Assembly: GCA_031272275.1 (NCBI GenBank)
Contig: JAISUC010000021.1
Span: 7,490-71,489, forward strand
Direction: 5' to 3'
Origin: Actinomycetes bacterium
GTDB taxonomy: Bacteria > Actinomycetota > Coriobacteriia > WRKU01 > WQUG01
Length of the DNA stretch: 64,000 nucleotides
Shown here: piece after piece, positions 52,026 to 64,000 of the stretch
How positions within the stretch are numbered: position 1 is the first letter of the stretch
How the letters are laid out: each line of letters starts with the position of its first letter
Notes under the pieces: model-generated
The model's database searches: none
What the model was told of the DNA's origin: nothing
Seen by the model: only the letters and a program-made list of their open reading frames with translations
Program-made: the position numbers and the translations under genes

Positions 52026-53351
52026 ATGTTCTCTGCGATTATCAATGCGTTCAAAATAGAGGATCTGCGTAAAAAGATCCTGTTCACGTTGTTCATCGTG
52101 TTGTTGTACCGCGTTGGATGTCATATCCCGGCCCCCGGTGTCGATGTGAACTTGGTCGCAGAGACGGTCAAGAACAACGCGGCCTTGGGCTTTTTGAACT
52201 TGTTTACCGGAAGCGCGCTGCAGCAGCTTTCGGTCTTTGCACTGGGTGTAATGCCCTACATCACTTCCTCGATCATCATGCAGCTGTTGCAAGCTGCCAT
52301 CCCCACCATCGAGGAGTGGAGCAAAGACGAAGCCGGCCAGCGCAAAATCACACAGATCACCCGCTACATCACCATCGGTATCGGCTTGGTCGAGTCAATC
52401 GGTCTGCTCTACACGTTCCGCAGCGCCATCCGCAGCGTCGCAAGCATCCCCGGCTGGTTGACGCCGGTGATGATTGTGGGATCCCTGCTTGCAGGTACGG
52501 CTCTGATCATGTGGATCAGCGAGCTGATTACCCAGCGAGGCGTCGGAAACGGTATGTCGATGATCATCTTCAGCTCGATCGTCGCGCGTTTTCCCGCCGC
52601 CCTGATCGAAAGCCTCAAGGACACCGTGACCGGTGCCTGGAAGGTCTGGTGGCAGCTGCTGATCACCGCAGCCGTCATCATCATTGTGCTGTTGGTCGTG
52701 ATTTTTGTGGTCATCTATATTGAGGAAGGACAGCGTCGCATCCCCGTCCAGTACGCCAAGCGTGTGGTCGGTCGTCGCGTCTTTGGCGGGTCGGGTACGT
52801 ATATCCCCCTGAAGGTGAACGGCGCAAACGTCGTGCCGATGATTTTTGCCTCTGCCATTCTGACGATTCCGCTGCAGCTGTCGCAGATTTTCCCGCAGGC
52901 GAATTGGCTGTCAAAGATCGCGAACTTTGTGTCCCCCCAGTCGTCCAGCGCGACGGCGGCTTTGCTGCCTTGGTATTCCGGTTGGGGAAACTGGCTGATA
53001 ACGTTTATCCTGATTGTGTTTTTTGCGTATTTCTATACGGCGCTGGTTTTCAACCCCATTGACATCAGCGACAACCTGCGCAAACAGGGCGGCTTTATCC
53101 CGGGTATCCGTCCCGGTAACAACACGACCCGCTATATCGAGCAGGTCATGAACCGCATCACGCTGCCGGGGGCTTTGTTCCTGGGCTGTATCGCGGTGGG
53201 TACCTCGGTTGTGTTTGCTTTGACGAAAAGCCCGATGGTCAACCAGTTCGGTGGCACCAGCATCTTGATTATGGTGGGTGTCGCGCTGGAAACCATGCAG
53301 CAAATCGAGTCGCAGCTGACCATGCGGCACTACGAGGGCTTCTTTAAATAG
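52026..53351 (+). CDS. secY: Preprotein translocase subunit SecY
   Basis: 441 aa; 10 TM helices. Confidence 0.95.
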   Translation: MFSAIINAFKIEDLRKKILFTLFIVLLYRVGCHIPAPGVDVNLVAETVKNNAALGFLNLFTGSALQQLSVFALGVMPYITSSIIMQLLQAAIPTIEEWSKDEAGQRKITQITRYITIGIGLVESIGLLYTFRSAIRSVASIPGWLTPVMIVGSLLAGTALIMWISELITQRGVGNGMSMIIFSSIVARFPAALIESLKDTVTGAWKVWWQLLITAAVIIIVLLVVIFVVIYIEEGQRRIPVQYAKRVVGRRVFGGSGTYIPLKVNGANVVPMIFASAILTIPLQLSQIFPQANWLSKIANFVSPQSSSATAALLPWYSGWGNWLITFILIVFFAYFYTALVFNPIDISDNLRKQGGFIPGIRPGNNTTRYIEQVMNRITLPGALFLGCIAVGTSVVFALTKSPMVNQFGGTSILIMVGVALETMQQIESQLTMRHYEGFFK

Positions 53352-53414
53352 GGTCTTTGAATAGGAAAGCCGTGGGTCGGTTTTCGGCTTACTGCGTTTC
53401 ACGCTTGTTTCATG

Positions 53415-53450
53415 TCAGGGCATTCGGTACCACCGGATGCCCTGTTTTCT
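53415..53450 (+). terminator. Intrinsic terminator after secY (CAGGGCATTCGG-taccac-CGGATGCCCTG plus TTTTCTT)
   Basis: 11-bp stem with one bulge followed by a T-run; it ends the ribosomal cluster, and adk/map/infA do not follow. Confidence 0.6.
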
Positions 53451-53456
53451 TATAAT
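53451..53456 (+). promoter_or_regulatory. -10 TATAAT placed 6 nt before the eutBC ATG (leaderless)
   Basis: Same geometry as the ispD and cysS promoters; no SD. Confidence 0.45.
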
Positions 53457-53462
53457 AGCCGC

Positions 53463-55568
53463 ATGTACACAACCACCCTGCATGATCGCAGTTTCACCTT
53501 CGCGACGCTGAAAGCGCTCCTTGCCTGTGCCAGCGAGGAAAAAACCGGTGATGTGATGGCGGGTATCGCCGCCACCACCGAGCTGGAACGAATCGCCGCG
53601 CGCCGTATTCTGGCGGACTTACCCCTCAGCACGCTCTATGAAAACCCCGTCATTGCCTATGACACCGACGAAGTCACCCGCGTGATGATTGATGCGATTG
53701 ATGCGACCGCCTACGGCCGCATCAAAGACCTGACCGTGGGGGCATTCCGCGAACTGATTCTGGCGTCATCCCCGTCCTACCTGGCAAGCATCCGTGACGG
53801 CATCACGGCAGAGATGGCAAGTGCCACCGCGAAACTGATGAGCAACCTGGACCTGGTCTACGCCGCAGCCAAGCTCCCCGTAACGGCGACCTGCAACACG
53901 ACCATCGGGCTGCCCGGCACTTTCAGCGTGCGCTGCCAGCCGAACCACCCGACCGATGACGTCGCAGGAATCCTGGCTTCCACTGCCGAGGGACTCAGCT
54001 ACGGATGCGGGGATGCGGTTATCGGCGTGAACCCCGCCACCGACGACCCCGACAGCGTACGTGAAATCCTAACGGCGCTCCGCCGCCTGGTCGACGAATA
54101 CGCCATCCCGACCCAGAACTGCGTACTCGCGCACGTCAGCACCCAGATGGCAGCCCTTGCCTCTGGAGCCCCGGTTGACCTGATGTTCCAGTCGATTGCC
54201 GGCAGCCAACGTGCCAACGCAGCCTTTGGCATCGATGTGGCACTACTGGACGAAGCCGACCACATGATGCGACAGCTGAAAAACAGCACCGGCCCCAACT
54301 ATTTCTACTTTGAAACCGGCCAGGGCAGCGCGCTTTCTGCCGACGGGCACCACGGCGCCGACCAGCAAACGCTCGAGGCCCGCGCCTACAGCTTGGCAAA
54401 ACGCTACCGCCCCTTCCTGGTGAACACGGTGGTGGGCTTCATCGGCCCGGAATATCTGTATGACGGCCGCCAAATCATCCGCGCCGGCCTGGAAGACCAC
54501 TTCATGGGCAAACTGCTGGGCGTCCCCGCAGGCGTGGACGTCTGCTACACCAACCACGCCCGCGCCGACCAAAACGACGTAGACGTGCTGGTCGCGCTGC
54601 TTGCCCAGGCGGGTTGCAACTACATCATGGGCATCCCCACAACCGATGACGTGATGCTGGCATACCAAAGCTCCAGTTTCCACGACACGGCGACCATGCG
54701 CGAGCTCTTGGGTAAACATGCCATCCGGCCCTTCGAGCACCGCATGGAACAGCTCGGCGTTCTGTCGGACGGCCGGCTGACCACGCGCGCCGGCAACCCG
54801 CGCCTATTCGGCTACGACCCGCCGACCACGCACACAGCGAACACAGCGCAAGCCACACAATCGGCGGGGGAGCACGTCCCGACGCCCGCCCGTTTGGATG
54901 TCGGTCACGCCGGCCCGCGCCTGCGCACAGCGACACTTTTGGACCTGCGAGCCGACCACGCAATTGCACGCGATGCCGTTTGGGACGATACCGACTGCAG
55001 CGTGGCGGATGACCTGGGCTTTGTCACCGTGCAGACGCTGGTGAACGATAAAGAGGAATACCTGCGCCGCCCCGATTTGGCGCGTGGTTTCAGTGACGAA
55101 TCGCTGGCCTACCTGCGCCGCCACGCAGCCCCGGGTGCAGACCTGCAGATTATCGCAGCTGACGGATTGTCGGTCGCGGCCGTTCAGGAAAACCTGGCGC
55201 GGATCTATCCGGAACTGATCCGACTGGCGGGTGCTCGCGGCTACAGCACGGGCACACCCATCTATGTGCGTTATGGGCGTGTGGCGACGATGGACAAGAT
55301 TTCAGAAGCCCTGCAGGCAAAGGTCACCGTCCTGTTGGTGGGGGAACGCCCCGGCCTGGGTTGCCGCACCTCGATGAGTTGCTACATGGCTTGGGAGGCA
55401 AGCCCGGACAAGCCCGAGGCACAACGCAACGTAGTCTCGAACATCCACGACGGCGGTCTGCCACCCGAAGCTGCCGCCGAACGCATCATCTCGATTGCCG
55501 CCGATATGTTTCGGTACCGCACATCGGGCGTCGAACTGAACCGACTGCTCCATCGCGTCGCCCGCTGA
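53463..55568 (+). CDS. eutBC: Ethanolamine ammonia-lyase, large and small subunits fused (EutB-EutC)
   Basis: N-terminal about 455 aa is EutB-like and the C-terminal about 220 aa is EutC-like (LVGERPGLG..), joined by a Thr/Ala-rich linker; the ORF-track start at 53412 was rejected in favour of MYTTTLHDRSFTF. Confidence 0.8.
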   Translation: MYTTTLHDRSFTFATLKALLACASEEKTGDVMAGIAATTELERIAARRILADLPLSTLYENPVIAYDTDEVTRVMIDAIDATAYGRIKDLTVGAFRELILASSPSYLASIRDGITAEMASATAKLMSNLDLVYAAAKLPVTATCNTTIGLPGTFSVRCQPNHPTDDVAGILASTAEGLSYGCGDAVIGVNPATDDPDSVREILTALRRLVDEYAIPTQNCVLAHVSTQMAALASGAPVDLMFQSIAGSQRANAAFGIDVALLDEADHMMRQLKNSTGPNYFYFETGQGSALSADGHHGADQQTLEARAYSLAKRYRPFLVNTVVGFIGPEYLYDGRQIIRAGLEDHFMGKLLGVPAGVDVCYTNHARADQNDVDVLVALLAQAGCNYIMGIPTTDDVMLAYQSSSFHDTATMRELLGKHAIRPFEHRMEQLGVLSDGRLTTRAGNPRLFGYDPPTTHTANTAQATQSAGEHVPTPARLDVGHAGPRLRTATLLDLRADHAIARDAVWDDTDCSVADDLGFVTVQTLVNDKEEYLRRPDLARGFSDESLAYLRRHAAPGADLQIIAADGLSVAAVQENLARIYPELIRLAGARGYSTGTPIYVRYGRVATMDKISEALQAKVTVLLVGERPGLGCRTSMSCYMAWEASPDKPEAQRNVVSNIHDGGLPPEAAAERIISIAADMFRYRTSGVELNRLLHRVAR

Positions 55569-55648: not shown

Positions 55649-58600
55649 ATGGCACTACGGGGGAAATGTCGTCTGCTCTTGCCGGTCTGCGTTGTTCTCA
55701 CACTCTGCGGAATAGCTATCCGTGCGTTTGCGACAGAACCCATCAGCGGCTATACGCCACCCGCCATTGATTCCACAGACATAAACGAAGCCGACTACGA
55801 GTCGTTGCTGGACATCCCGCGGCAGGCGGTGCGGGGTCTGCGCACGACGGTCAGCGCTGACCCCTTGCCCGCCAGTTTCGATTGGCGAACAGAAAACCCA
55901 CAGATTCTGGTGGCAGCCCGCGATCAGAACCCCTATGGCAGTTGCTGGGCATTTGCCGCCACGGCGGTCATGGAGGGCAGTGCCGTTCAAAACGGATTGA
56001 CGGCAACCTCGATTATGCTCTCTCCGAAACAATTGGTGTATGCCGCCTATAACAGTCAAACCTTCGAGACACCCGCCGGTTACAGTGCGCTGAATGCCGG
56101 CGGAAACAGCCTGTATTCGGCGGCGGCATTGGGCAAATGGTTCGGTCCGGTTGACGAGGCGCGCGTGCCCTACGGAACCTCGACCGCGATTACCGACCCT
56201 GCCATCTATGCTGCCAGCGACTATCACCTGCGCGAGATGCGCATGTTGCCGATGCCGAAAAACAACACGACGGCACAGGCAGCCTATTCCGCCGAAAATG
56301 TGGAAACGATTAAGCGGGCGGTCAAAACGTGGGGACCTGTCGCGACCGCGTTTTACTGGGGGAATTATTGGAAGTCATCGACGAACAGTCCCTACAATTC
56401 GACGGTTTATTACTACTGCAACAACTCCCATTACAATCCCGCCGATCCTTATGGCAACCCACTCGGTGTCAATATCCCGAACCATGCGGTGGTGATCGTG
56501 GGCTGGGACGACAGCATTTCCCGGACGAATTTCAATACAAACATCGATAGCCAACCCCCGGGTGACGGGGCGTGGTTGATTCGCAACAGCTGGGGTCCGA
56601 CCTTTGGACAGGCAGGCTATTTCTGGATGTCGTATTACGACAAATCCATGGACACCAGCGAATACTTCAGCATCGAGGATGTTTCGAACTACGACCACAA
56701 CTATTACTGGGACGCGATGGGCTGGATCGGCGGCGAAATCGAAAACGATGGCGACGCCGCAGACGCCGCGCAAATCGCAAACGTGTTCACATCAACGGCA
56801 ACGACCACGGTGGCACAGGAACTGCGTGCCGTCAGCTTTTACACCGACGAACCGGACACCGACTACGAGATCGCCGTCTACCTGAACCCGACCGATGGCA
56901 GTCCGACAGGTCCTTTGCAGGCAGATGTCGCAGACGGCGCCGCGCTGACGATCACCGGAAACAAAGTCTACGCGGGGCTTTATACCGTCGACCTGGACAT
57001 TCCGGTGTATTTGCCCGCAGGGCAGACCTTCTCGGTGGTTGTCACCTTGTCACGCACGGATGGCGTGGACGCAATCCCGGTCGAGGCCAGCGACAGCGGC
57101 ACGACCCTGCAGGGCGATCCGGCTTCCGGGCTGCTGTCAACCGGCGTCGACGGGTTGGATATCGCCCCGGGTCAAAGCTACTATCGCTTCACCGCAGCCC
57201 CGGGCGACAGCAGCCCCGTCACCGACCCCGTCTGGACCGACGTCTATGACACGGTCTCGGCGCCCAATTCAGACTACGCCGACTGTGGCAACGTGAACGT
57301 GAAAGCCCTGACGGTCGACACCTCCGCAACCGCAGCCGCGCGTTATACGATCGGCTTTGATTCCTGCGGTGGCACATCCGTGCCGGCGACCACCATCGCC
57401 TCCGGTGCCCCGTACGGCACGCTTCCCACCCCCACGCGCGCCGGCTGCGACTTCCTGGGCTGGTTCACCGAATCGGTCGAGGGCACGCAGGTCACCGCAG
57501 CCACCACCGCGACCGAAAATCGCATCCTCTACGCACACTGGGGCTACGTCATCACCTTTGATGCACGCGGTCACAGCGCCGACACAACCGTTACCTTGTC
57601 CGGCGGACACGCGCTGACCACCCTGCCGGCAGACATCACGCGCGCCGGCTACACTTTCGCCGGCTGGTGGACTGAACCCGACGGCGGTTTTCCCATCGCC
57701 GCCGGCATCTTTCCCGCAGGTAGCACGGCCTATTACGCCCGCTGGACCTGCACGATTACCTATGACGCGCGCGGCGGCAGCAGCACCCCCGCCACCCAGA
57801 CGGTCTTTGACGGCGCAACCGTCACGCTACCCACAGCGACGCGCGCCGGTTACACCTTCGGCGGCTGGTGGACCGCCGCCACCGCAGGATCGCAGGTCGG
57901 TTCGGACTGGCACGCCGGTGGAGACATCACGCTCCACGCCCATTGGAACAGCACCGTCAGTTTTGATGTCAACGGGGGGGATACCGCCACGACGCCACCG
58001 CCCATCGTGGTCGCCCAGGACAGCGCCTATGGCCCGCTGCCGACGGCGATGCGCGCCGGCTATACCTTCGACGGTTGGTATACGGCACCCGGCGGGGGAG
58101 TACGGGTCGGCAGCGACGATTATCCCGCCGGCGGGGATGCGACCCTGTACGCCCGGTGGGTCAGCGTTGTCGTGTGGGATGCGCGCGGTTTCAGCACTGA
58201 CACCACCCGGGCGGTTGCGTTCGGGTCTGCGGTCGGTACCTTGCCGGCTGACGTGACGCGCGCCGGCTACACATTTGCCGGCTGGTGGACGGCTGCGGAC
58301 GGTGGTACGCAGGTCACGGCCGCCGCGGTGCCTCCCGGAAATGTGACCTATTATGCGCGCTGGACCTGTACGGTGAGCTTTGACACGCACGGCGGCACGG
58401 CGGCACCGGCGCTGACCGTGTTTCAGGGACAGTCGGTCACGTTGCCTGCGGTTTCGCGCGTCAGCTACAGTTTCGCCGGCTGGTGGACGGACGCGACCGG
58501 CGGCACGCAGCTGACCGGTTCGTATACGCCTGCCGGCGACATCACGCTGCACGCGCACTGGTGCAGCCGTATCGTCCTGAACGCGAACGGCGGAATCACA

Positions 58601-59989
58601 CCGGTCACCACGCAGCTGCTGATTGCAGACGGAGATGCGTACGGTGCGCTGCCCACGACGACGCGGATCGGCTATACCTTCGGTGGCTGGTGGACGGACG
58701 CGACCGGCGGCACGCAGGTTCAGGCAGGCGACATCGCGACCGGTAACCGAACCCTGTACGCCCACTGGCTCAGCACTGTGACTTTTAATGCCCGCGGTGG
58801 CAGCGCCGTTGCGGCACGTACGGTCGACTATGGGCAGCCCTTGGGGGCGCTGCCATCCGGTGTCACCCGTGCCGGCTATACGTTCGGTGGCTGGTGGACG
58901 GCTGCTGACGGCGGCACGCAGGTCACGGCCGCCACGGTGCCCACAGGCGACGTCACCTATTACGCGCGCTGGACCTGGACGGTGAGTTTTGATACGCGCG
59001 GGGGCAGCACGGTCAGCGCGCTGACGCGCTATGACAACCAAACGGCGGCTCCGGGTAACCCGACCAAGCCGGGCTACACGTTTGATGGCTGGTGGACCGC
59101 CGGCACGGGCGGCACGCGGGTTGCGACCCCGATTGCTGCCGGCTCCACCAACGGCAGCATCACCCTGTATGCCCACTGGGGCAGCACCGTGACCTGGGAC
59201 GCCCGTGGTGGCAGCACCGTCGGCTTGCGCCTGGTTCCCGAAGGATCCGCCATCGGCAGCCTACCGACTCCGACCCGTACCAAAGCCCGTCTGCTGGGCT
59301 GGTACACGCTGCCTGCGGGCAACGGCGTACAGGTTGATGCCGGTTTCGTGCCGAACGGCAACACGCAGCTGTATGCGCACTGGATGATGCAGGTGGCGTT
59401 TAACACGCGCGGCGGCAGCTCGGTTTCCACAACTGAAATCGCCCAGGGCTCGGTCATCGGCACGTTGCCGGTCACGACGCGCGCCGGTTACGTGTTCGCC
59501 GGCTGGAGCACTGACGGCGCGGACTCCGGCGGCGGCATCATCGACGCCGGCTTCGTCGTCTACGACCCGCTGACCTTGTACGCGCGCTGGACCGCCATCG
59601 GGGGCAGCTCGCAGACGGGTGGTTCGCAAACCGGGCAAGCAACCACCCCGGGCGGTAATACGGGCACGTCTGCATCGACCACGCAGCAAACGGTACAAGT
59701 TGCCAAGCCCAAACGCACCGCCATCAAGAAGCTGACCGTCGGCAAACGAAAAGTCACCGTCACCTGGAAAAAGGTCGGCAGCATCAGCAAATACCAGCTG
59801 CGCTATCGCATCCGCGGGAAAAAGGCTTGGAAGTACAAGCTGGTCAGCGCCAAACAGACCAAGCTGGTCCTGAAAAAGCTGAAGCGCGCCAAACGCTACC
59901 AAATCCAGGTGCGCAGCTACTGCCTGCGCGGCAGCAAACGCCTCTATTCCCCTTGGTCTGCCACCAAAACCACCAAACGCGTACGGTGA
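55649..59989 (+). CDS. Secreted papain-family (C1) cysteine peptidase with about 14 Listeria-Bacteroides (Flg_new-type) repeats and a C-terminal basic Ig/FN3-like domain
   Basis: Signal peptide MALRGKCRLLLPVCVVLTLCGIAIRAFA; C1 motifs QNPYGSCWAFA, NHAVVIVGWDD, WLIRNSWG; repeated ...RAGYTFAGWWT..GGTQV.. modules; K/R-rich tail; no LPXTG. Confidence 0.8.
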   Translation: MALRGKCRLLLPVCVVLTLCGIAIRAFATEPISGYTPPAIDSTDINEADYESLLDIPRQAVRGLRTTVSADPLPASFDWRTENPQILVAARDQNPYGSCWAFAATAVMEGSAVQNGLTATSIMLSPKQLVYAAYNSQTFETPAGYSALNAGGNSLYSAAALGKWFGPVDEARVPYGTSTAITDPAIYAASDYHLREMRMLPMPKNNTTAQAAYSAENVETIKRAVKTWGPVATAFYWGNYWKSSTNSPYNSTVYYYCNNSHYNPADPYGNPLGVNIPNHAVVIVGWDDSISRTNFNTNIDSQPPGDGAWLIRNSWGPTFGQAGYFWMSYYDKSMDTSEYFSIEDVSNYDHNYYWDAMGWIGGEIENDGDAADAAQIANVFTSTATTTVAQELRAVSFYTDEPDTDYEIAVYLNPTDGSPTGPLQADVADGAALTITGNKVYAGLYTVDLDIPVYLPAGQTFSVVVTLSRTDGVDAIPVEASDSGTTLQGDPASGLLSTGVDGLDIAPGQSYYRFTAAPGDSSPVTDPVWTDVYDTVSAPNSDYADCGNVNVKALTVDTSATAAARYTIGFDSCGGTSVPATTIASGAPYGTLPTPTRAGCDFLGWFTESVEGTQVTAATTATENRILYAHWGYVITFDARGHSADTTVTLSGGHALTTLPADITRAGYTFAGWWTEPDGGFPIAAGIFPAGSTAYYARWTCTITYDARGGSSTPATQTVFDGATVTLPTATRAGYTFGGWWTAATAGSQVGSDWHAGGDITLHAHWNSTVSFDVNGGDTATTPPPIVVAQDSAYGPLPTAMRAGYTFDGWYTAPGGGVRVGSDDYPAGGDATLYARWVSVVVWDARGFSTDTTRAVAFGSAVGTLPADVTRAGYTFAGWWTAADGGTQVTAAAVPPGNVTYYARWTCTVSFDTHGGTAAPALTVFQGQSVTLPAVSRVSYSFAGWWTDATGGTQLTGSYTPAGDITLHAHWCSRIVLNANGGITPVTTQLLIADGDAYGALPTTTRIGYTFGGWWTDATGGTQVQAGDIATGNRTLYAHWLSTVTFNARGGSAVAARTVDYGQPLGALPSGVTRAGYTFGGWWTAADGGTQVTAATVPTGDVTYYARWTWTVSFDTRGGSTVSALTRYDNQTAAPGNPTKPGYTFDGWWTAGTGGTRVATPIAAGSTNGSITLYAHWGSTVTWDARGGSTVGLRLVPEGSAIGSLPTPTRTKARLLGWYTLPAGNGVQVDAGFVPNGNTQLYAHWMMQVAFNTRGGSSVSTTEIAQGSVIGTLPVTTRAGYVFAGWSTDGADSGGGIIDAGFVVYDPLTLYARWTAIGGSSQTGGSQTGQATTPGGNTGTSASTTQQTVQVAKPKRTAIKKLTVGKRKVTVTWKKVGSISKYQLRYRIRGKKAWKYKLVSAKQTKLVLKKLKRAKRYQIQVRSYCLRGSKRLYSPWSATKTTKRVR

Positions 59990-59998
59990 TTTCGGTCG

Positions 59999-60658
59999 TC
60001 ACTCTTCTGTATCCTCACTAAAGTCAAGAGCGAGTTGCTCTCCTGCTTTCAGGTGTTCCTCTTCTGCTTTCAGGAGTTTCTCGAACCGTTTTTGCACGAT
60101 TTCTTCCAATGATTTCACGAGTTCTTGCAAATCTTCAATATCTTTCAGTTCGCGTAGCGAAAAAAGGGTGTCACCAAATTCATCTCGATATCGACGATAC
60201 AGAACAACGGGTTTGTTGTTCAGCAGTAGCTGGATTGCATTTCTCAGACTTCCCGAGCTTACCGATAGCTGTCCGTAACGTGGGTGCATATACGTATCCT
60301 GCCACACAATCAAACCATATTTGCACGCGTCACCCATTGCCCGGTCTTTTTCTGTTTCCCGTTCTTTTTGCTTACGTGGTTTACCGTCTTCACTAGATTT
60401 TTCTTCGGCCTTTGGTGAAACCTGAACTATGTCCCAGTCCTCCGGCACCTTTATCCGGGGCGTATCGTGAATGGTGTATACCGTGACGTTGGTATACTTA
60501 CGTTTTCTGAGATCTTCAGCGATACGAGCATCAACCCCCCTCTCAGAGTCACCGATCAACACGGGGATATCTTGGTCGACAATGTTGGCAATTCGTTCCT
60601 CTAACTCCTCGGGCAGAGAATCAATCTGTCGTGATCCGCTAATGAACACAGAACCCAT
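59999..60658 (-). CDS. SLOG/DprA-like Rossmann-fold protein (N-terminal FISGSR...VLIGDSERGVD) with an acidic coiled-coil C-terminus
   Basis: 219 aa; low-GC island gene; the pattern resembles DprA/YpsA/LOG-type nucleotide-binding modules; the family assignment is tentative. Confidence 0.5.
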   Translation of the reverse strand: MGSVFISGSRQIDSLPEELEERIANIVDQDIPVLIGDSERGVDARIAEDLRKRKYTNVTVYTIHDTPRIKVPEDWDIVQVSPKAEEKSSEDGKPRKQKERETEKDRAMGDACKYGLIVWQDTYMHPRYGQLSVSSGSLRNAIQLLLNNKPVVLYRRYRDEFGDTLFSLRELKDIEDLQELVKSLEEIVQKRFEKLLKAEEEHLKAGEQLALDFSEDTEE

Positions 60659-60718
60659 TAAATACTCCTTAAATTCTTCAGTTAATCTGTCGAGACTCCA
60701 TTGTACCCGCCCCGTCCC

Positions 60719-61468
60719 TTAAAAGGGAATGTCTTCGGTCAGGACCTCGACGCTCGGGCCGTTTTGTCGAGACTCAGCTGTACCCACCCCGTCCTTTTTT
60801 ATACCACCACCGGTGTTTTTGCAGAGTGACAGGAAGTATATGTGACCGGCTCCGTTCTTCTGCAGTTCCTTAATACAGGCCCGTAAGGTGGCACCTTCCT
60901 CATACGTGTCATCAACAATCAAGGTGGGAAGGCCATTCAAAGTATAAGTGCACGAGAAATCACCTTCAGAAAAATTAGATCCCCTCTCTTTTCTTTTCGA
61001 CTCCACACACGTCTTCTTCAGTAAGGCTTCAACGTATCGGTATTCAGGTGTTGCGAGTCCTTGTGCGATTGCATAGACGTGCTGAATATCTCGGTCTTTC
61101 GAGGACGGAGCCGGCACGATCAAAAGAGACCCGAGGTCTTCTGCCGCAACCAGGTTTTTGATTACACCGGATTTCTTTATTCTACTTACCGCATCACTGA
61201 TGAGTTCCAGCTTTTCCTTCCTACCAAGATTCTTCCAATACTTTAAGTGATTGATAGTCTCCCCGAAATCAGAGCGATTGGCAGCGTCCTTATGATACGG
61301 TTGGATTGCCAAGCCCTTGGTAAGACCGTCTGCAGTGATGGGAAGAAAAAGCCTACTGCCACAACCACCGAACCAGTCTTTGCAATAGTACTCACCTTCA
61401 TGGAGTTTACTCTTCATAATATCGGTGTTGCCACAAAACGGGCATCGCTCTATTCCTAGGAATTCCAT
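60719..61468 (-). CDS. ComF-like phosphoribosyltransferase-domain protein with N-terminal C4 zinc ribbon
   Basis: CPFCGN..C..GGCG zinc ribbon; PRTase type I motif LIVDDTYEEGATLRACIKEL; strong RBS GAGGAGGTG. Confidence 0.75.
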   Translation of the reverse strand: MEFLGIERCPFCGNTDIMKSKLHEGEYYCKDWFGGCGSRLFLPITADGLTKGLAIQPYHKDAANRSDFGETINHLKYWKNLGRKEKLELISDAVSRIKKSGVIKNLVAAEDLGSLLIVPAPSSKDRDIQHVYAIAQGLATPEYRYVEALLKKTCVESKRKERGSNFSEGDFSCTYTLNGLPTLIVDDTYEEGATLRACIKELQKNGAGHIYFLSLCKNTGGGIKKDGVGTAESRQNGPSVEVLTEDIPF

Positions 61469-61569
61469 TTCTTCACCTCCTCACAAAACGGGCATCGCTT
61501 TTTCTCGATTACCTTGACCCTGCCTTGTTTCTGCATCTCTTTAAATAAATCCAACATACTCTTAGCCAT
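61456..61569 (-). CDS. 37-aa ORF (MAKSMLDLFKEMQKQGRVKVIEKKRCPFCEEVKKWNS) that duplicates the PRTase N-terminal half zinc ribbon and overlaps the PRTase start
   Basis: RBS GAGGTGG 7 nt upstream; an 18-nt direct repeat cacaaaacgggcatcgct sits at 61432-61449 and 61482-61499; not in the supplied ORF track (under 60 aa). Confidence 0.3.
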   Translation of the reverse strand: MAKSMLDLFKEMQKQGRVKVIEKKRCPFCEEVKKWNS

Positions 61570-61581
61570 CTTTTCCACCTC

Positions 61582-62904
61582 TCACTGCAGACCGCGTTTT
61601 ATGATCTTCATATGACGCTTTGTTCCCTTGAATAGTGACGGGCTTCGTTCGAATGTTCGATGGGATCGCTTTACGTAGTTCAGGAAATTCGGCTGCTTTC
61701 GATCCCCCTTCTCCGAATAGATCTGATAGAGCATCCTTCTTGATTTTGCCCCTTTATGTGGGTCTTGTGCCGCAATGGCGTTTACCGTATTGATCTTTCG
61801 GCGTAGGCGATAGTGGTATTTTGAAATGGTCTTATCGCGAATGCGGACTTCCGTGCCGTCAATAGCGAAACCCAGATATTCCAACACATCTTTCGTGTTC
61901 GGTGTATCCGGCAGATAGTCCTCGTTGCAGTTGTGGATTGCACTGTGCACACGGTGATAAACACGGGTTTTGTCCGGCTGCAGGTCGAGCCCGGGGATTG
62001 AATCAATAATGCCGACCAGCCTTTTGTAGATACAATCAAAACCGACTCCGTCCGTTTCGTCGGAAGGGATGATGACGATGAAGTCATCACAATAGCGCAT
62101 GTATTTACCGGAGTATTCCGTCACCAAATCATGTATCAACTTGTCGAATTCCAGCATATAGACGTTTGATAAAACCCCACTGATGGGGGAGCCTTGCGGT
62201 ATCCCATAGTCGTTGTCATTACGTGCGATAGCACCACTGCGCGATTCGCGTTTACTCAACTGCCTGTATTGCTCAGGGGTCAACACACGCTTTTTTCGGT
62301 CGAGCTCTCTGCGCGTCTTAACCCCATTGATTTCCAGCAAGGACTTCAGGCTCCAATCAGAATAGCGCGTGATGTTCTTGTAGACCGCATAATAATCAGC
62401 AGGGAGCTTTGGGGCACCAAACAATGAAAGAAGTCGTTCTTTCAAGTACCGATGATCCAAGTGGTCAAAGAAGCCCGTAAAATCCCCAATCAACACAAAA
62501 CACTCCGGATGCTCGGCAATACAATCAAAGGCCGCTTTCGCGAAGTCTATGTTGCATTTTTTCAGGTCTGACCGATATGCAATGGCACAATCAGCGGTGC
62601 CGTCAACAGCAATGCGCCGAACGTACTTTTCCTCCAACAGCAGCGAATAGTATTGATAGATGCAGCGATCGATGTGCGCGGCATAGCGAATGGGGCGTTC
62701 TTTTGCCTTGGTACCGGTTCCCTTGTGGTATTTCCGCGTATGCTCGACGTAGTGAATAAAAGGATAGAATCCGTGTCGCGCAACTTTTTCGGGATCCGTG
62801 ATGTAATCCCATTTGCTGTCGCAGCTTACGCGCAGATCAAAGTGCGCGTAGCCTTTTGGCTTGCTGTGTTTATTTCGCCACTCGTGCAGCTGTTCGGGGG
62901 TCAT
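61582..62904 (-). CDS. Reverse transcriptase (retron/defence-associated RT-like, canonical motifs 1-7)
   Basis: RPIRYAAHIDRCIYQYY (motifs 1/2), DFTGFFDHLDH (motif A, D..FF), GIPQGSPISGVLSNVYM (B'), YCDDFIVI (YxDD), LGFAIDG (motif 7); 440 aa with a basic C-terminal tail. Confidence 0.85.
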   Translation of the reverse strand: MTPEQLHEWRNKHSKPKGYAHFDLRVSCDSKWDYITDPEKVARHGFYPFIHYVEHTRKYHKGTGTKAKERPIRYAAHIDRCIYQYYSLLLEEKYVRRIAVDGTADCAIAYRSDLKKCNIDFAKAAFDCIAEHPECFVLIGDFTGFFDHLDHRYLKERLLSLFGAPKLPADYYAVYKNITRYSDWSLKSLLEINGVKTRRELDRKKRVLTPEQYRQLSKRESRSGAIARNDNDYGIPQGSPISGVLSNVYMLEFDKLIHDLVTEYSGKYMRYCDDFIVIIPSDETDGVGFDCIYKRLVGIIDSIPGLDLQPDKTRVYHRVHSAIHNCNEDYLPDTPNTKDVLEYLGFAIDGTEVRIRDKTISKYHYRLRRKINTVNAIAAQDPHKGAKSRRMLYQIYSEKGDRKQPNFLNYVKRSHRTFERSPSLFKGTKRHMKIIKRGLQ

Positions 62905-63167
62905 ATTGTTGTCCCCGAATGCACAAAAGCCACCGGCACGGGGTACGACATCCCTAATCCGGTGGCCCTAAAACGATAATACCTGATGTCATTGACATCG
63001 TCGGCCGTACTCAATTGCACACAAAGTGCGATCATGTAGTTCAATACTTCCCTTATCCCTGCGGATAAGGCGTCCCCATTGTAGATGATTTGCGTTGGGC
63101 TGTCAACGCTCGTTTCGAAGCCGACCAATTGCCTCTCCTGCTCTTCCAGCGGAATAATACTTCCCAT
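62901..63167 (-). CDS. 88-aa hypothetical ORF translationally coupled to the RT (ATGA overlap); alternatively a non-coding RNA region
   Basis: Its stop overlaps the RT start codon; the region holds several stable hairpins (62930-62965, 62985-62999, 63051-63070), so a structured ncRNA is equally possible. Confidence 0.35.
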   Translation of the reverse strand: MGSIIPLEEQERQLVGFETSVDSPTQIIYNGDALSAGIREVLNYMIALCVQLSTADDVNDIRYYRFRATGLGMSYPVPVAFVHSGTTI

Positions 63168-63336
63168 CGTAGAGGCCGTTCTCTTTCAGGATGCGAATCT
63201 GATTTGAGGTCGCATGATGATTCCACATTTCAGAGTTATGATACTGGCTACGATAGCCATGCTGCGCACTTCTATAGATAGCCTTACGGTTATGATAGCC
63301 ATCGCTATAATCGGAATATGAGTTGCGCCTTGCCAT
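63103..63336 (-). CDS. 77-aa Tyr/His/Ser-rich small protein, first gene of the island operon
   Basis: Strong RBS GAGGAAGGG 8 nt upstream of ATG; unusual composition (12 Y, 7 H). Confidence 0.4.
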   Translation of the reverse strand: MARRNSYSDYSDGYHNRKAIYRSAQHGYRSQYHNSEMWNHHATSNQIRILKENGLYDGKYYSAGRAGEAIGRLRNER

Positions 63337-63403
63337 TTGGCATACCCCTTCCTCAACTACTGTTTCCGGTAATCCACCTCAAACCCGAAAATGTGCCAGC
63401 GCA

Positions 63404-63431
63404 AAAATAGCACAGGGGGGGGGGCTGTCAA
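63404..63431 (-). promoter_or_regulatory. Promoter of the island operon: TTGACA - G/C10 homopolymer in the 16-nt spacer - TATTTT
   Basis: Minus-strand TTGACAG-C10-TGTGC-TATTTT; the 10-nt homopolymer tract is at 63415-63424. Confidence 0.45.
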
Positions 63432-63670
63432 GGAGGCTTTTTTCAGTTGCAGATGGGGTACCGATTACGATGAAATCCGCAGTTCAAGCTGCCTCCGCAC
63501 GCCGTCCACCAAACAGAGCCACACTAAAGCGGGGGAGTACGTCCCGGCGTCTGCGTTGGGCTGCGCGCCTGCTGCCGGATGGGCGCTGCTGCGGGACGCA
63601 CTCCCCCCCCTGAAAACGTGGGATTCCGTGTTCAGTTAACTGCAAAATACGTGAAAGTAACTGTCAATAG

Positions 63671-63693
63671 TTTTGCGGTTACAAACCGCAAAA
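63671..63693. terminator. Perfect 10-bp hairpin TTTTGCGGTT-aca-AACCGCAAAA (bidirectional terminator-like) at the island edge
   Basis: Perfect inverted repeat flanked by A- and T-runs. Confidence 0.5.
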
Positions 63694-63720
63694 CAGACAG
63701 CAAAAACACCCGAATCTGCA

Positions 63721-63790
63721 AATCACCGAATGAATCGCCTGCAAACTATCGACTGAAACACCTGCAAATCATCGAACGCGCAGGTAAATC
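63721..63790. repeat. Three 23-nt iteron-like direct repeats (CTGCAAATCANCGAA...)
   Basis: CTGCAAATCACCGAAtgaatcgc / CTGCAAACTATCGACtgaaacac / CTGCAAATCATCGAAcgcgcagg. Confidence 0.55.
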
Positions 63791-64000
63791 ACTCACGCGT
63801 GCGGCGTGGGTACGTGTGGCCCGCTGCCTAACGTATCGCGCAGTATCCGCCAAAAGGCCGCACGATCGACGTCGCACGTAATATCCACATTGCCCTTCGC
63901 ATCATCGGGCGTGAATGCTGTTTGGCCATCTTGCGCCCCGACGCGGACCCGCCCACGCCTCAACGTGCACACCTCGGGGCAGAACACGTTGACGCCGACC

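Follow-up and report, generated by a model that had tools for sequence, protein, structure and literature searches.

A DRT2 reverse transcriptase with a shortened non-coding RNA beside a PRTase–SLOG gene pair in a low-GC island of an actinobacterial genome

Do neighbouring defence-type genes in a small low-GC island form one system or several? The question is raised by an AT-rich island of about 3.5 kb in the 64,000-nt stretch of contig JAISUC010000021.1 (assembly GCA_031272275.1, Actinomycetes bacterium) analysed here, a stretch that we call the window. The island carries genes for a reverse transcriptase (RT), a phosphoribosyltransferase (PRTase) and a SLOG-fold protein, and a first-pass annotation had treated this three-gene combination as the candidate unit of a retron/DRT-type defence system. 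Our analysis points instead to a DRT2 system that would be unable to make its product Neo, a separate PRTase/SLOG module resembling ShosTA, and a small gene that is a mere passenger, a reading to which we assign a probability of about 0.65. In this reading the islet was acquired horizontally and its modules, two or three of them of defence type, came to lie side by side by chance; they would not make up one three-gene system.

A DRT2 reverse transcriptase and its shortened RNA

By its sequence, the 440-aa RT (positions 61582-62904, minus strand) belongs to the known type DRT2 (UG2; KpnDRT2, Gao 2020) and is neither a retron RT nor a new type of RT. PADLOC returned Drt2 with E=8e-142, far ahead of UG39, Drt3a and other families, none of them better than 1e-19, and the NCBIfam equivalog 'antiviral reverse transcriptase Drt2' (NF041746) was passed with 400.9 bits against a cut-off of 390. 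Pfam gives RVT_1 alone, with neither a fused effector domain nor any other extra domain. The YCDD active site is intact, with Y271, D273 and D274 at invariant positions, and 69 of the 72 positions invariant among 25 relatives are retained, in agreement with the canonical RT described in the first-pass annotation. The DRT half of 'retron/DRT-type' therefore stands on the Drt2 score; the retron half falls, the NCBIfam retron models giving 22-42 bits against cut-offs of 235-600 and the PADLOC retron models reaching at best E~1e-9, over ~40 residues. A group II intron RT is likewise not what was found (group_II_RT_mat gives 65 bits against a cut-off of 300), and an Rfam scan of positions 59,000-64,000 at E<=1 gave zero matches, intron RNA included; repeats resembling the template and variable repeats (TR/VR) of a diversity-generating retroelement (DGR) were not found either. 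The window holds no integrase, as had been noticed at the outset together with the missing intron and DGR hallmarks.

The search for homologues of the RT returned 2661 sequences, the best non-self matches being 49-50% identical and mostly from Firmicutes; the source of the island is a metagenome-assembled genome (MAG) labelled 'Actinomycetes bacterium', and no relative above 50% identity was found in a collection of 5.8 billion proteins. In a neighbour-joining tree of 77 RTs, the island RT is nested in a 36-member clade as the sister of the RT from locus L015. Its terminal branch (0.279) is the longest in its subclade, the median across the whole 77-sequence tree being 0.161, and its median identity to its relatives is 47%, compared with 49-60% among the others.

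DRT2 is the classic example of a gene that comes into being only through reverse transcription. The system consists of just the RT and an upstream, pseudoknotted non-coding RNA (ncRNA) of ~280 nt (PMC11100668, Tang et al.; PMC12039810, Wilkinson et al.). A template of ~120 nt within this RNA is copied many times over, with template jumps from one short repeated motif to another; in double-stranded form the resulting concatemer restores a promoter across the junction, and neo, a stop-less open reading frame (ORF) antisense to the ncRNA, has a product that arrests growth (PMC11100668, PMC12039810). Tang et al. also report divergent DRT2 clades without an annotatable Neo (PMC11100668).

To place the island among its relatives, we retrieved the genomic surroundings of related RTs at 80 loci and aligned the sequence upstream of each RT. 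The order of elements in the relatives runs from a TTGAC..TATAAT promoter through a 5' hairpin (SL1), ATTGTTGTCAA and a variable stretch to CCTCC...ATTATA..CATAGTT.AG.ATTG, GGATAGCTGG, a variable hairpin and a strongly covarying 3' hairpin, in which 12 of 15 pairs show compensatory changes. For this hairpin together with the GGAUAGC/GCUAUCC pseudoknot, pairing holds in 98.9% of cells and 18 of the 22 pairs are doubly changed, a level reached by none of 500 shuffles. Read on the opposite strand, the conserved blocks give TTGACA (−35), TATAAT (−10) and GGAGG (ribosome-binding site, RBS). As repeat unit we took the stretch from one of two invariant ATTG motifs to the other; these motifs seem to take the role of the ACA-1 and ACA-2 motifs of KpnDRT2. 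In all of the 44 loci so treated (L005-L070) the length of the unit is divisible by 3 (105-186 nt), and the circularised unit leaves the same antisense frame stop-free. The junction yields a promoter of the TTGACA-17-TATAAT type in 41 of the 44, and from SL1 up to where the 3' hairpin ends the relatives span 246-329 nt (median 296). Unit, frame, promoter and span together thus mark this Firmicutes clade as textbook neo-type DRT2. At locus L075 (4670-6061) the DRT2 RT looks disrupted, and the SL1 module is matched only partially.

The RNA upstream of the island RT belongs to the same type but is shortened to ~150 nt (62919-63071, minus strand) and is without the neo template, a loss that the first-pass annotation had overlooked. 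The promoter of the ncRNA/RT transcript (63106-63078, minus strand; TTGACA-17-TACAAT, 11/12 consensus) is the best sigma-70-type promoter in the island, and the SL1 match lies directly downstream of it, as in the relatives. Because blastn of the upstream region against the 80 loci gave only matches of ~40 nt near the RT start, we turned to covariance models made from the relatives, R1 for the 3' scaffold and R2 for SL1 plus ATTGTTGTCAA; a global MAFFT alignment misplaced the island RNA, and feature anchors and the covariance models were relied on instead. R1 has one match in the window (62919-62978, minus strand, 15 nt upstream of the RT start), with 30.1 bits and an E-value of 1.3e-3 window-wide or 1.4e-5 locally, and this match takes in model positions 84-143, the 3' hairpin, only. 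The best R2 match in the window (63047-63070; 14.9 bits, E=0.21) is likewise limited to the hairpin, at model positions 3-26. In about 50 relatives R1 and R2 match end to end.

The elements that the island RNA keeps, all on the minus strand, are SL1 (63071-63050), an ATTG motif (63045-63042), the pseudoknot 5' arm GUACGGC (63010-63004), a small variable hairpin (62999-62985) and the 3' hairpin (62968-62929), whose loop GUCGUAC (62949-62943) is the 3' arm of the pseudoknot; SL1, the pseudoknot and both of these hairpins are present in the predicted fold. Compared with the family consensus GGAUAGC/GCUAUCC, three pairs of the pseudoknot are changed on both sides, and shuffling the intervening 68 nt gives a 7-bp complement such as that of GUACGGC to the loop in 1.9% of cases. 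The middle of the RNA is where the island departs from its family. TTGTCAA is absent from the R2 match, no ATTGTTGTCAA-like site occurs on the RNA strand anywhere in the island, the TTGTCAA, CCTCC and ATTATA blocks were not found in the ncRNA region, and the 5' half of the scaffold (from the ATTATA / −10 box to the GGATAGC pseudoknot arm) has no nhmmer match. The whole span is ~152 nt as against 246-329 nt in the relatives, and the distance from SL1 to the pseudoknot arm ~39 nt as against about 130-210 nt.

Tentatively, the RNA may have suffered an internal deletion of ~130 nt that starts right after the first ATTG (63045-63042), and that would have taken away the −35 box, the neo ORF together with start codon and RBS, and the −10 box. 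In a manual, feature-anchored alignment, positions 63041-63022 (AACTACATGATCGCACTTTG) align to the last 20 nt of the L015 unit with 13/20 identities; given the lack of an nhmmer match for the 5' half of the scaffold, the manual alignment of 63041-63011 is suggestive only. Since the RT is nested among neo-type systems, the short RNA is best taken as a secondary loss, and, as far as the sequence goes, a neo gene cannot be assembled from the island locus. Two ATTG motifs lie 30 nt apart in the residual region, and we considered them as a designed mini-template; we gave this idea less weight, for it is post hoc, promoter, RBS and ATG are absent, and the tail of the L015 unit is a better match for the stretch.

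The PRTase–SLOG pair

Beyond the RT gene lie two further genes on the minus strand, one for a 249-aa protein with a zinc ribbon and a PRTase domain (60719-61468), of ComF-like architecture and a putative toxin, and one for a 219-aa SLOG-fold protein (59999-60658), its putative antitoxin or partner. The first-pass annotation had recognised a ComF-like PRTase with a zinc ribbon and a SLOG/DprA-like partner, and both descriptions hold. The zinc ribbon has the invariant pattern C9-P-x-C12...C29...C36, and the loop for phosphoribosyl pyrophosphate (PRPP) reads VDDTYEEGAT. An AlphaFold2 model of the PRTase is moderate (predicted local distance difference test score, pLDDT, 67), and in Foldseek its core has H. 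pylori ComF as top match (E=1e-6 over 220 columns) and also matches ShosT (E~7e-3). In PADLOC the PRTase has weak matches to ShosT (3.4e-7), of the system ShosTA (Millman 2022), and to PsyrT (4.7e-6), in the PRTase core only. It is very unlikely to be a housekeeping ComFC, the comF model TIGR00201 giving 25.3 bits against a cut-off of 233.6, and com genes were not found nearby. The SLOG protein has the SLOG-type Rossmannoid fold by our fold test and a long helix at its C-terminus; it has no family match in Pfam, PADLOC, NCBIfam or PHROGs, and the hidden Markov model of ShosA was matched by none of 62 members of its family. When both partner proteins and their profiles were searched against the PDB, no relatives among ShosA, DprA, YpsA and ShosT/ComF were found by sequence, and the SLOG protein has no PDB relative at all, either by its sequence or by its profile; the proposed link of the two partners to these proteins comes from fold comparison only.

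The PRTase deviates at 16 of 99 positions that are invariant in its 7 closest relatives, which themselves deviate at 1-5 each, and its deviations include G190E in the PRPP-binding loop (DDTYGEGAT to DDTYEEGAT); it may be an outgroup or functionally altered. A 33-nt direct repeat, 85% identical (60688-60720 / 60765-60797), lies in the intergenic region and the 3' end of the PRTase gene, and where one copy lies, the island PRTase has an 8-residue insertion (GVGTAESR-like) that its relatives lack.

The SLOG family comprises at least 64 SLOG-protein clusters. The order and adjacency of the pair, PRTase then SLOG, recur in 12 other loci (L002, L003, L004, L085, L086/87, L088 and six metagenome contigs), and no RT was found at any of these, a search with the RT profile included, some of the contigs having only ~1-1.5 kb of upstream flank. 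Conversely, the 5-kb surroundings of the 80 DRT2 RTs contain neither a PRTase nor a SLOG gene by tblastn or by a profile search of six-frame ORFs. A pair that occurs without an RT in 12 loci and is missing from 80 DRT2 loci is an autonomous, mobile two-gene module, and the three-gene combination is thereby dissolved as a unit. Elsewhere the pair has as neighbours toxin-antitoxin (TA) pairs (HigB/HTH, Phd/YoeB, HicA, HepT/MNT, ParE/Phd), an IS110 transposase, and NERD, Fic, DEAD/DUF559 and AAA_15/21 proteins. At L004 (9102-9705) the SLOG gene, downstream of a Sel1-extended PRTase, is split over two frames and is possibly an antitoxin pseudogene.

Small reading frames, borders and neighbourhood

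The ORFs of the island were taken from a mechanical list of minus-strand frames from 59999 to 63336, and three small ones need comment, since the first-pass annotation had counted five or six genes, two of them small and upstream of the RT. The 88-aa ORF (62901-63167, minus strand) overlies the promoter and ncRNA of the RT and overlaps the R1 and R2 matches; it has no tblastn match in the 80 DRT2 loci and none in Pfam, PADLOC or PHROG, and on this sequence evidence it is most likely not a gene. The 77-aa ORF (63103-63336, minus strand) fares better and is probably, by its sequence, a real gene separate from DRT2. It comes with a promoter of its own (63431-63404, 10/12) and with a strong RBS; its stop codon shares nucleotides with the −35 box of the ncRNA, and its C-terminal 40 aa match 23 cluster representatives with E-values down to 5e-7. 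This module of ~40 aa (NSxMWxxPATxxQIxxLKxxGxYDGKYYSxGRAGxxIG) is found elsewhere at the N-terminus of proteins of 120-520 aa, often of 400-500 aa with a C-terminal S1 RNA-binding domain; a homologue of the ORF is absent from the 80 DRT2 loci. At L089 a 77-aa relative adjoins an NYN-domain gene. The third, of 37-40 aa between RT and PRTase (61456-61578, minus strand), is a doubtful gene that contains a duplicated 5' fragment of the PRTase gene and has a homologue in none of the related loci. An exact 18-nt direct repeat (61432-61449 / 61482-61499, ~28 nt with mismatches) puts the PRTase 'RCPFC' codons inside this ORF and suggests a small duplication at the RT/PRTase junction. The count of five or six genes is accordingly too high, by an ORF that overlies an RNA and another that is unconserved.

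The low GC content and the co-directional minus-strand genes that had first drawn attention to the island were confirmed: GC is 0.45-0.51 over ~59,900-63,400 as against 0.66-0.69 at 57,400-59,400, and ~0.54 at the window end, and all ORFs of the island lie on the minus strand. The further proposal of a horizontally acquired island of defence type is supported as well. Neither a tRNA marking an integration site nor flanking direct repeats defining the ends were found. On the left, a plus-strand gene of ~4.3 kb (~55650-59989) converges on the island and encodes a very large surface protein of ~1,400 aa with C1-peptidase, lectin-like and multi-repeat parts; on the right, a minus-strand gene for an inosine-uridine nucleoside hydrolase runs off the window end and was identified through L001, an identical 6.2-kb contig from the Sequence Read Archive (SRA). 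The island was said to follow secY directly, where the rest of a ribosomal operon would be expected. This proved wrong: secY (52026-53351) is followed by a single plus-strand ORF in which eutB and eutC are fused (53412-55568; large and small subunits of ethanolamine ammonia-lyase) and then by the surface-protein gene, so that the island lies ~6.6 kb from secY. Between the nucleoside hydrolase gene and the island (63700-63790, minus strand) there are four spaced copies of a GATTTGCAG-like motif, accompanied by a hairpin TTGCGGTT-TGT-AACCGCAA; copies and hairpin could be operator sites or an element end.

One system or several: weighing the readings and the nearest known systems

How the parts would work can be set out as follows. 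The first module is a DRT2, in which a single promoter serves a cis ncRNA and the RT gene. In the canonical form of DRT2, rolling-circle reverse transcription of the ~120-nt template gives the concatemer, this in turn the promoter and the stop-less neo, and Neo arrests the infected cell. The island has kept SL1, pseudoknot and 3' hairpin, the scaffold to which the RT binds, and the missing ~130 nt with −35 box, neo ORF, RBS and −10 box would make Neo production impossible; most likely, we infer, this DRT2 was recently disabled while its RT ORF is still intact. The second module is the two-gene operon of zinc-ribbon PRTase and SLOG-fold protein, in which the PRTase, by analogy with ShosTA and PsyrTA/RqlHI, may act as a PRPP-dependent toxin and the DprA-like SLOG protein as an antitoxin that does not bind it, or as a sensor. 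The 77-aa gene with its own promoter would be a third, unrelated passenger.

Several observations weigh against this picture of a disabled DRT2 beside an independent pair. Taken alone, the SL1 match is weak (E=0.21), and the boundaries of the deletion rest on the manual, feature-anchored alignment. The intact RT ORF and the compensatory changes in the pseudoknot indicate that the RT–RNA pair was under selection until recently, and the pair might still work in a non-canonical way. The roles of toxin and antitoxin are assigned by analogy, and neither protein reaches the thresholds of the ShosTA models. The gap between RT and PRTase is 113 nt, the two genes are co-directional, and no consensus promoter or terminator was found between them, so that they may be co-transcribed; the uniformly low GC of all parts suggests that they arrived together. 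Finally, the arrangement is known from one genome and the identical SRA contig only, so that its conservation is not assessable.

These observations leave some room for a DRT2 that still acts, although each such reading is in our estimation unlikely. The one with the best prospects has the DRT2 standing alone and working from a residual or trans template towards a product other than Neo, for instance non-coding repeat DNA as in DRT10 or DRT9. The intact RT and the scaffold elements preserved with compensatory changes speak for it, as do the divergent clades without annotatable Neo (PMC11100668) and the non-coding repeat or homopolymer DNA that other DRTs produce (PMC12632851, PMC12483538). However, the RT is nested where 44 of 44 members encode Neo, so that the new function would necessarily be very recent; the DRT2 would be without a protein effector to act on its product; and the longest branch of the subclade and the 47% median identity are compatible with relaxed constraint. 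Slightly more doubtful is an integrated system, in which RT and neo-less ncRNA make a short non-coding complementary DNA (cDNA), single-stranded or in tandem repeats, upon infection, the SLOG protein senses or titrates it, and the PRTase toxin is released, the pair having replaced Neo as effector. The tight co-directional genes without a detected promoter or terminator between RT and PRTase, the uniform GC, and the retention of an intact RT and scaffold RNA despite the lost effector-coding template would all fit, as would the reported sensitivity of ShosA antitoxin activity to single-stranded DNA (ssDNA) (PMC12961424) and, post hoc, the spacing of the two ATTG motifs by a multiple of 3. Yet the co-occurrence is seen once, with the pair at 0 of 80 DRT2 loci and an RT at 0 of 12 pair loci, the nearest RT relatives are all stand-alone neo-type systems, and the residual 'template' fits the last 20 nt of the deleted unit better than a designed mini-template. 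Poorer still are the chances of the specific version in which DRT2 has been rewired to the protein pair, with single-stranded cDNA from the residual template read by the SLOG protein and the PRTase unleashed; if true, it would be a hybrid of cDNA-synthesising DRT immunity and ShosTA-like abortive infection.

Two readings leave DRT2 immunity aside altogether. Retrons with PRTase-domain effectors have been described, and the RT adjoins a PRTase here, so that multicopy single-stranded DNA (msDNA) from an msr/msd RNA might guard the PRTase/SLOG pair; with retron scores far under every cut-off while the Drt2 equivalog is passed, and with an upstream RNA that matches the DRT2 scaffold models and not msr/msd, and nothing in Rfam, we give this next to no credence. 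That the pair is the housekeeping ComFC and DprA of a natural-competence locus is very improbable too, if not quite to that degree: H. pylori ComF is the top Foldseek match, and ComFC and DprA co-operate in transformation (PMC9005727), but the comF model is missed by a wide margin, the SLOG protein has no DprA sequence match even by profile and lacks the flanking domains of DprA, other com genes were not found nearby, and the pair sits in a low-GC island here and among TA and defence genes elsewhere. The preferred reading thus remains that of two modules, a neo-less DRT2 and a PRTase–SLOG pair, with a passenger gene.

Interest accordingly attaches to the DRT2 without neo and to the unclassified family of PRTase–SLOG pairs. 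Neither the RT family nor its mechanism is new, and pairs of PRTase and DprA-like proteins are known in kind; new are a naturally template-less DRT2 ncRNA beside an intact RT, and a family of zinc-ribbon PRTase and SLOG proteins, with its 64 or more SLOG-protein clusters, that PADLOC does not recognise. The former could serve as a clean natural 'knock-out' of how such systems decay and, less likely, as a first hint of a DRT2 output that is not Neo; the latter is a good candidate for a new TA or defence subtype. The locus also carries a caution, that neighbouring genes of a low-GC islet are not to be read as one system.

Set beside known systems, the first module resembles DRT2 in its stand-alone RT of ~440 aa with YCDD, which passes the Drt2 model, in its single upstream promoter serving a cis ncRNA and then the RT, and in the 5' stem-loop, pseudoknot and 3' hairpin that its RNA shares with the family. 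It differs in the length of that RNA (~150 nt vs ~280-300 nt), which is without −35 box, stop-less ORF, RBS and −10 box, and in its host, a high-GC actinobacterial MAG, whereas the relatives are mostly from Firmicutes.

For the second module, four comparisons are at hand. ComFC and DprA offer a zinc finger plus PRTase matched with a SLOG-fold protein, DprA being a binder of ssDNA; the island proteins, by contrast, score far under the family thresholds and belong to a mobile island, not a competence locus. Gene pairs of YpsA-clade SLOG proteins and PRTases were noted by Burroughs et al. 2015, as cited in Brzozowski et al. 2019 (PMC6459960); the island SLOG protein has no match to YpsA at the sequence level in Pfam or PDB profile searches. 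PsyrTA/RqlHI (PMC4670107) also pairs a PRTase-containing toxin with a DprA-like partner, but PsyrT/RqlH is a RecQ-like helicase fused to a PRTase, and the island pair has no helicase. The toxin of ShosTA is a PRTase that has to bind PRPP; its DprA-like antitoxin attaches to ssDNA and RecA, not to the toxin (PMC11961720, PMC12961424). The island shares with it the two-gene operon in which the PRTase gene is upstream of the SLOG/DprA-like gene; ShosT, however, has 424 aa and an N-terminal pyrophosphatase-like domain where the 249-aa island PRTase has a zinc ribbon, and ShosA has a SAM domain and a larger DprA domain where the 219-aa island partner has no SAM domain and ends in a long helix. By sequence, the pair fails the models of both systems, yet ShosTA and PsyrTA are what it most resembles, and it would carry their theme, in which a PRTase toxin has a DprA-like protein as partner, over to an architecture like that of ComFC.

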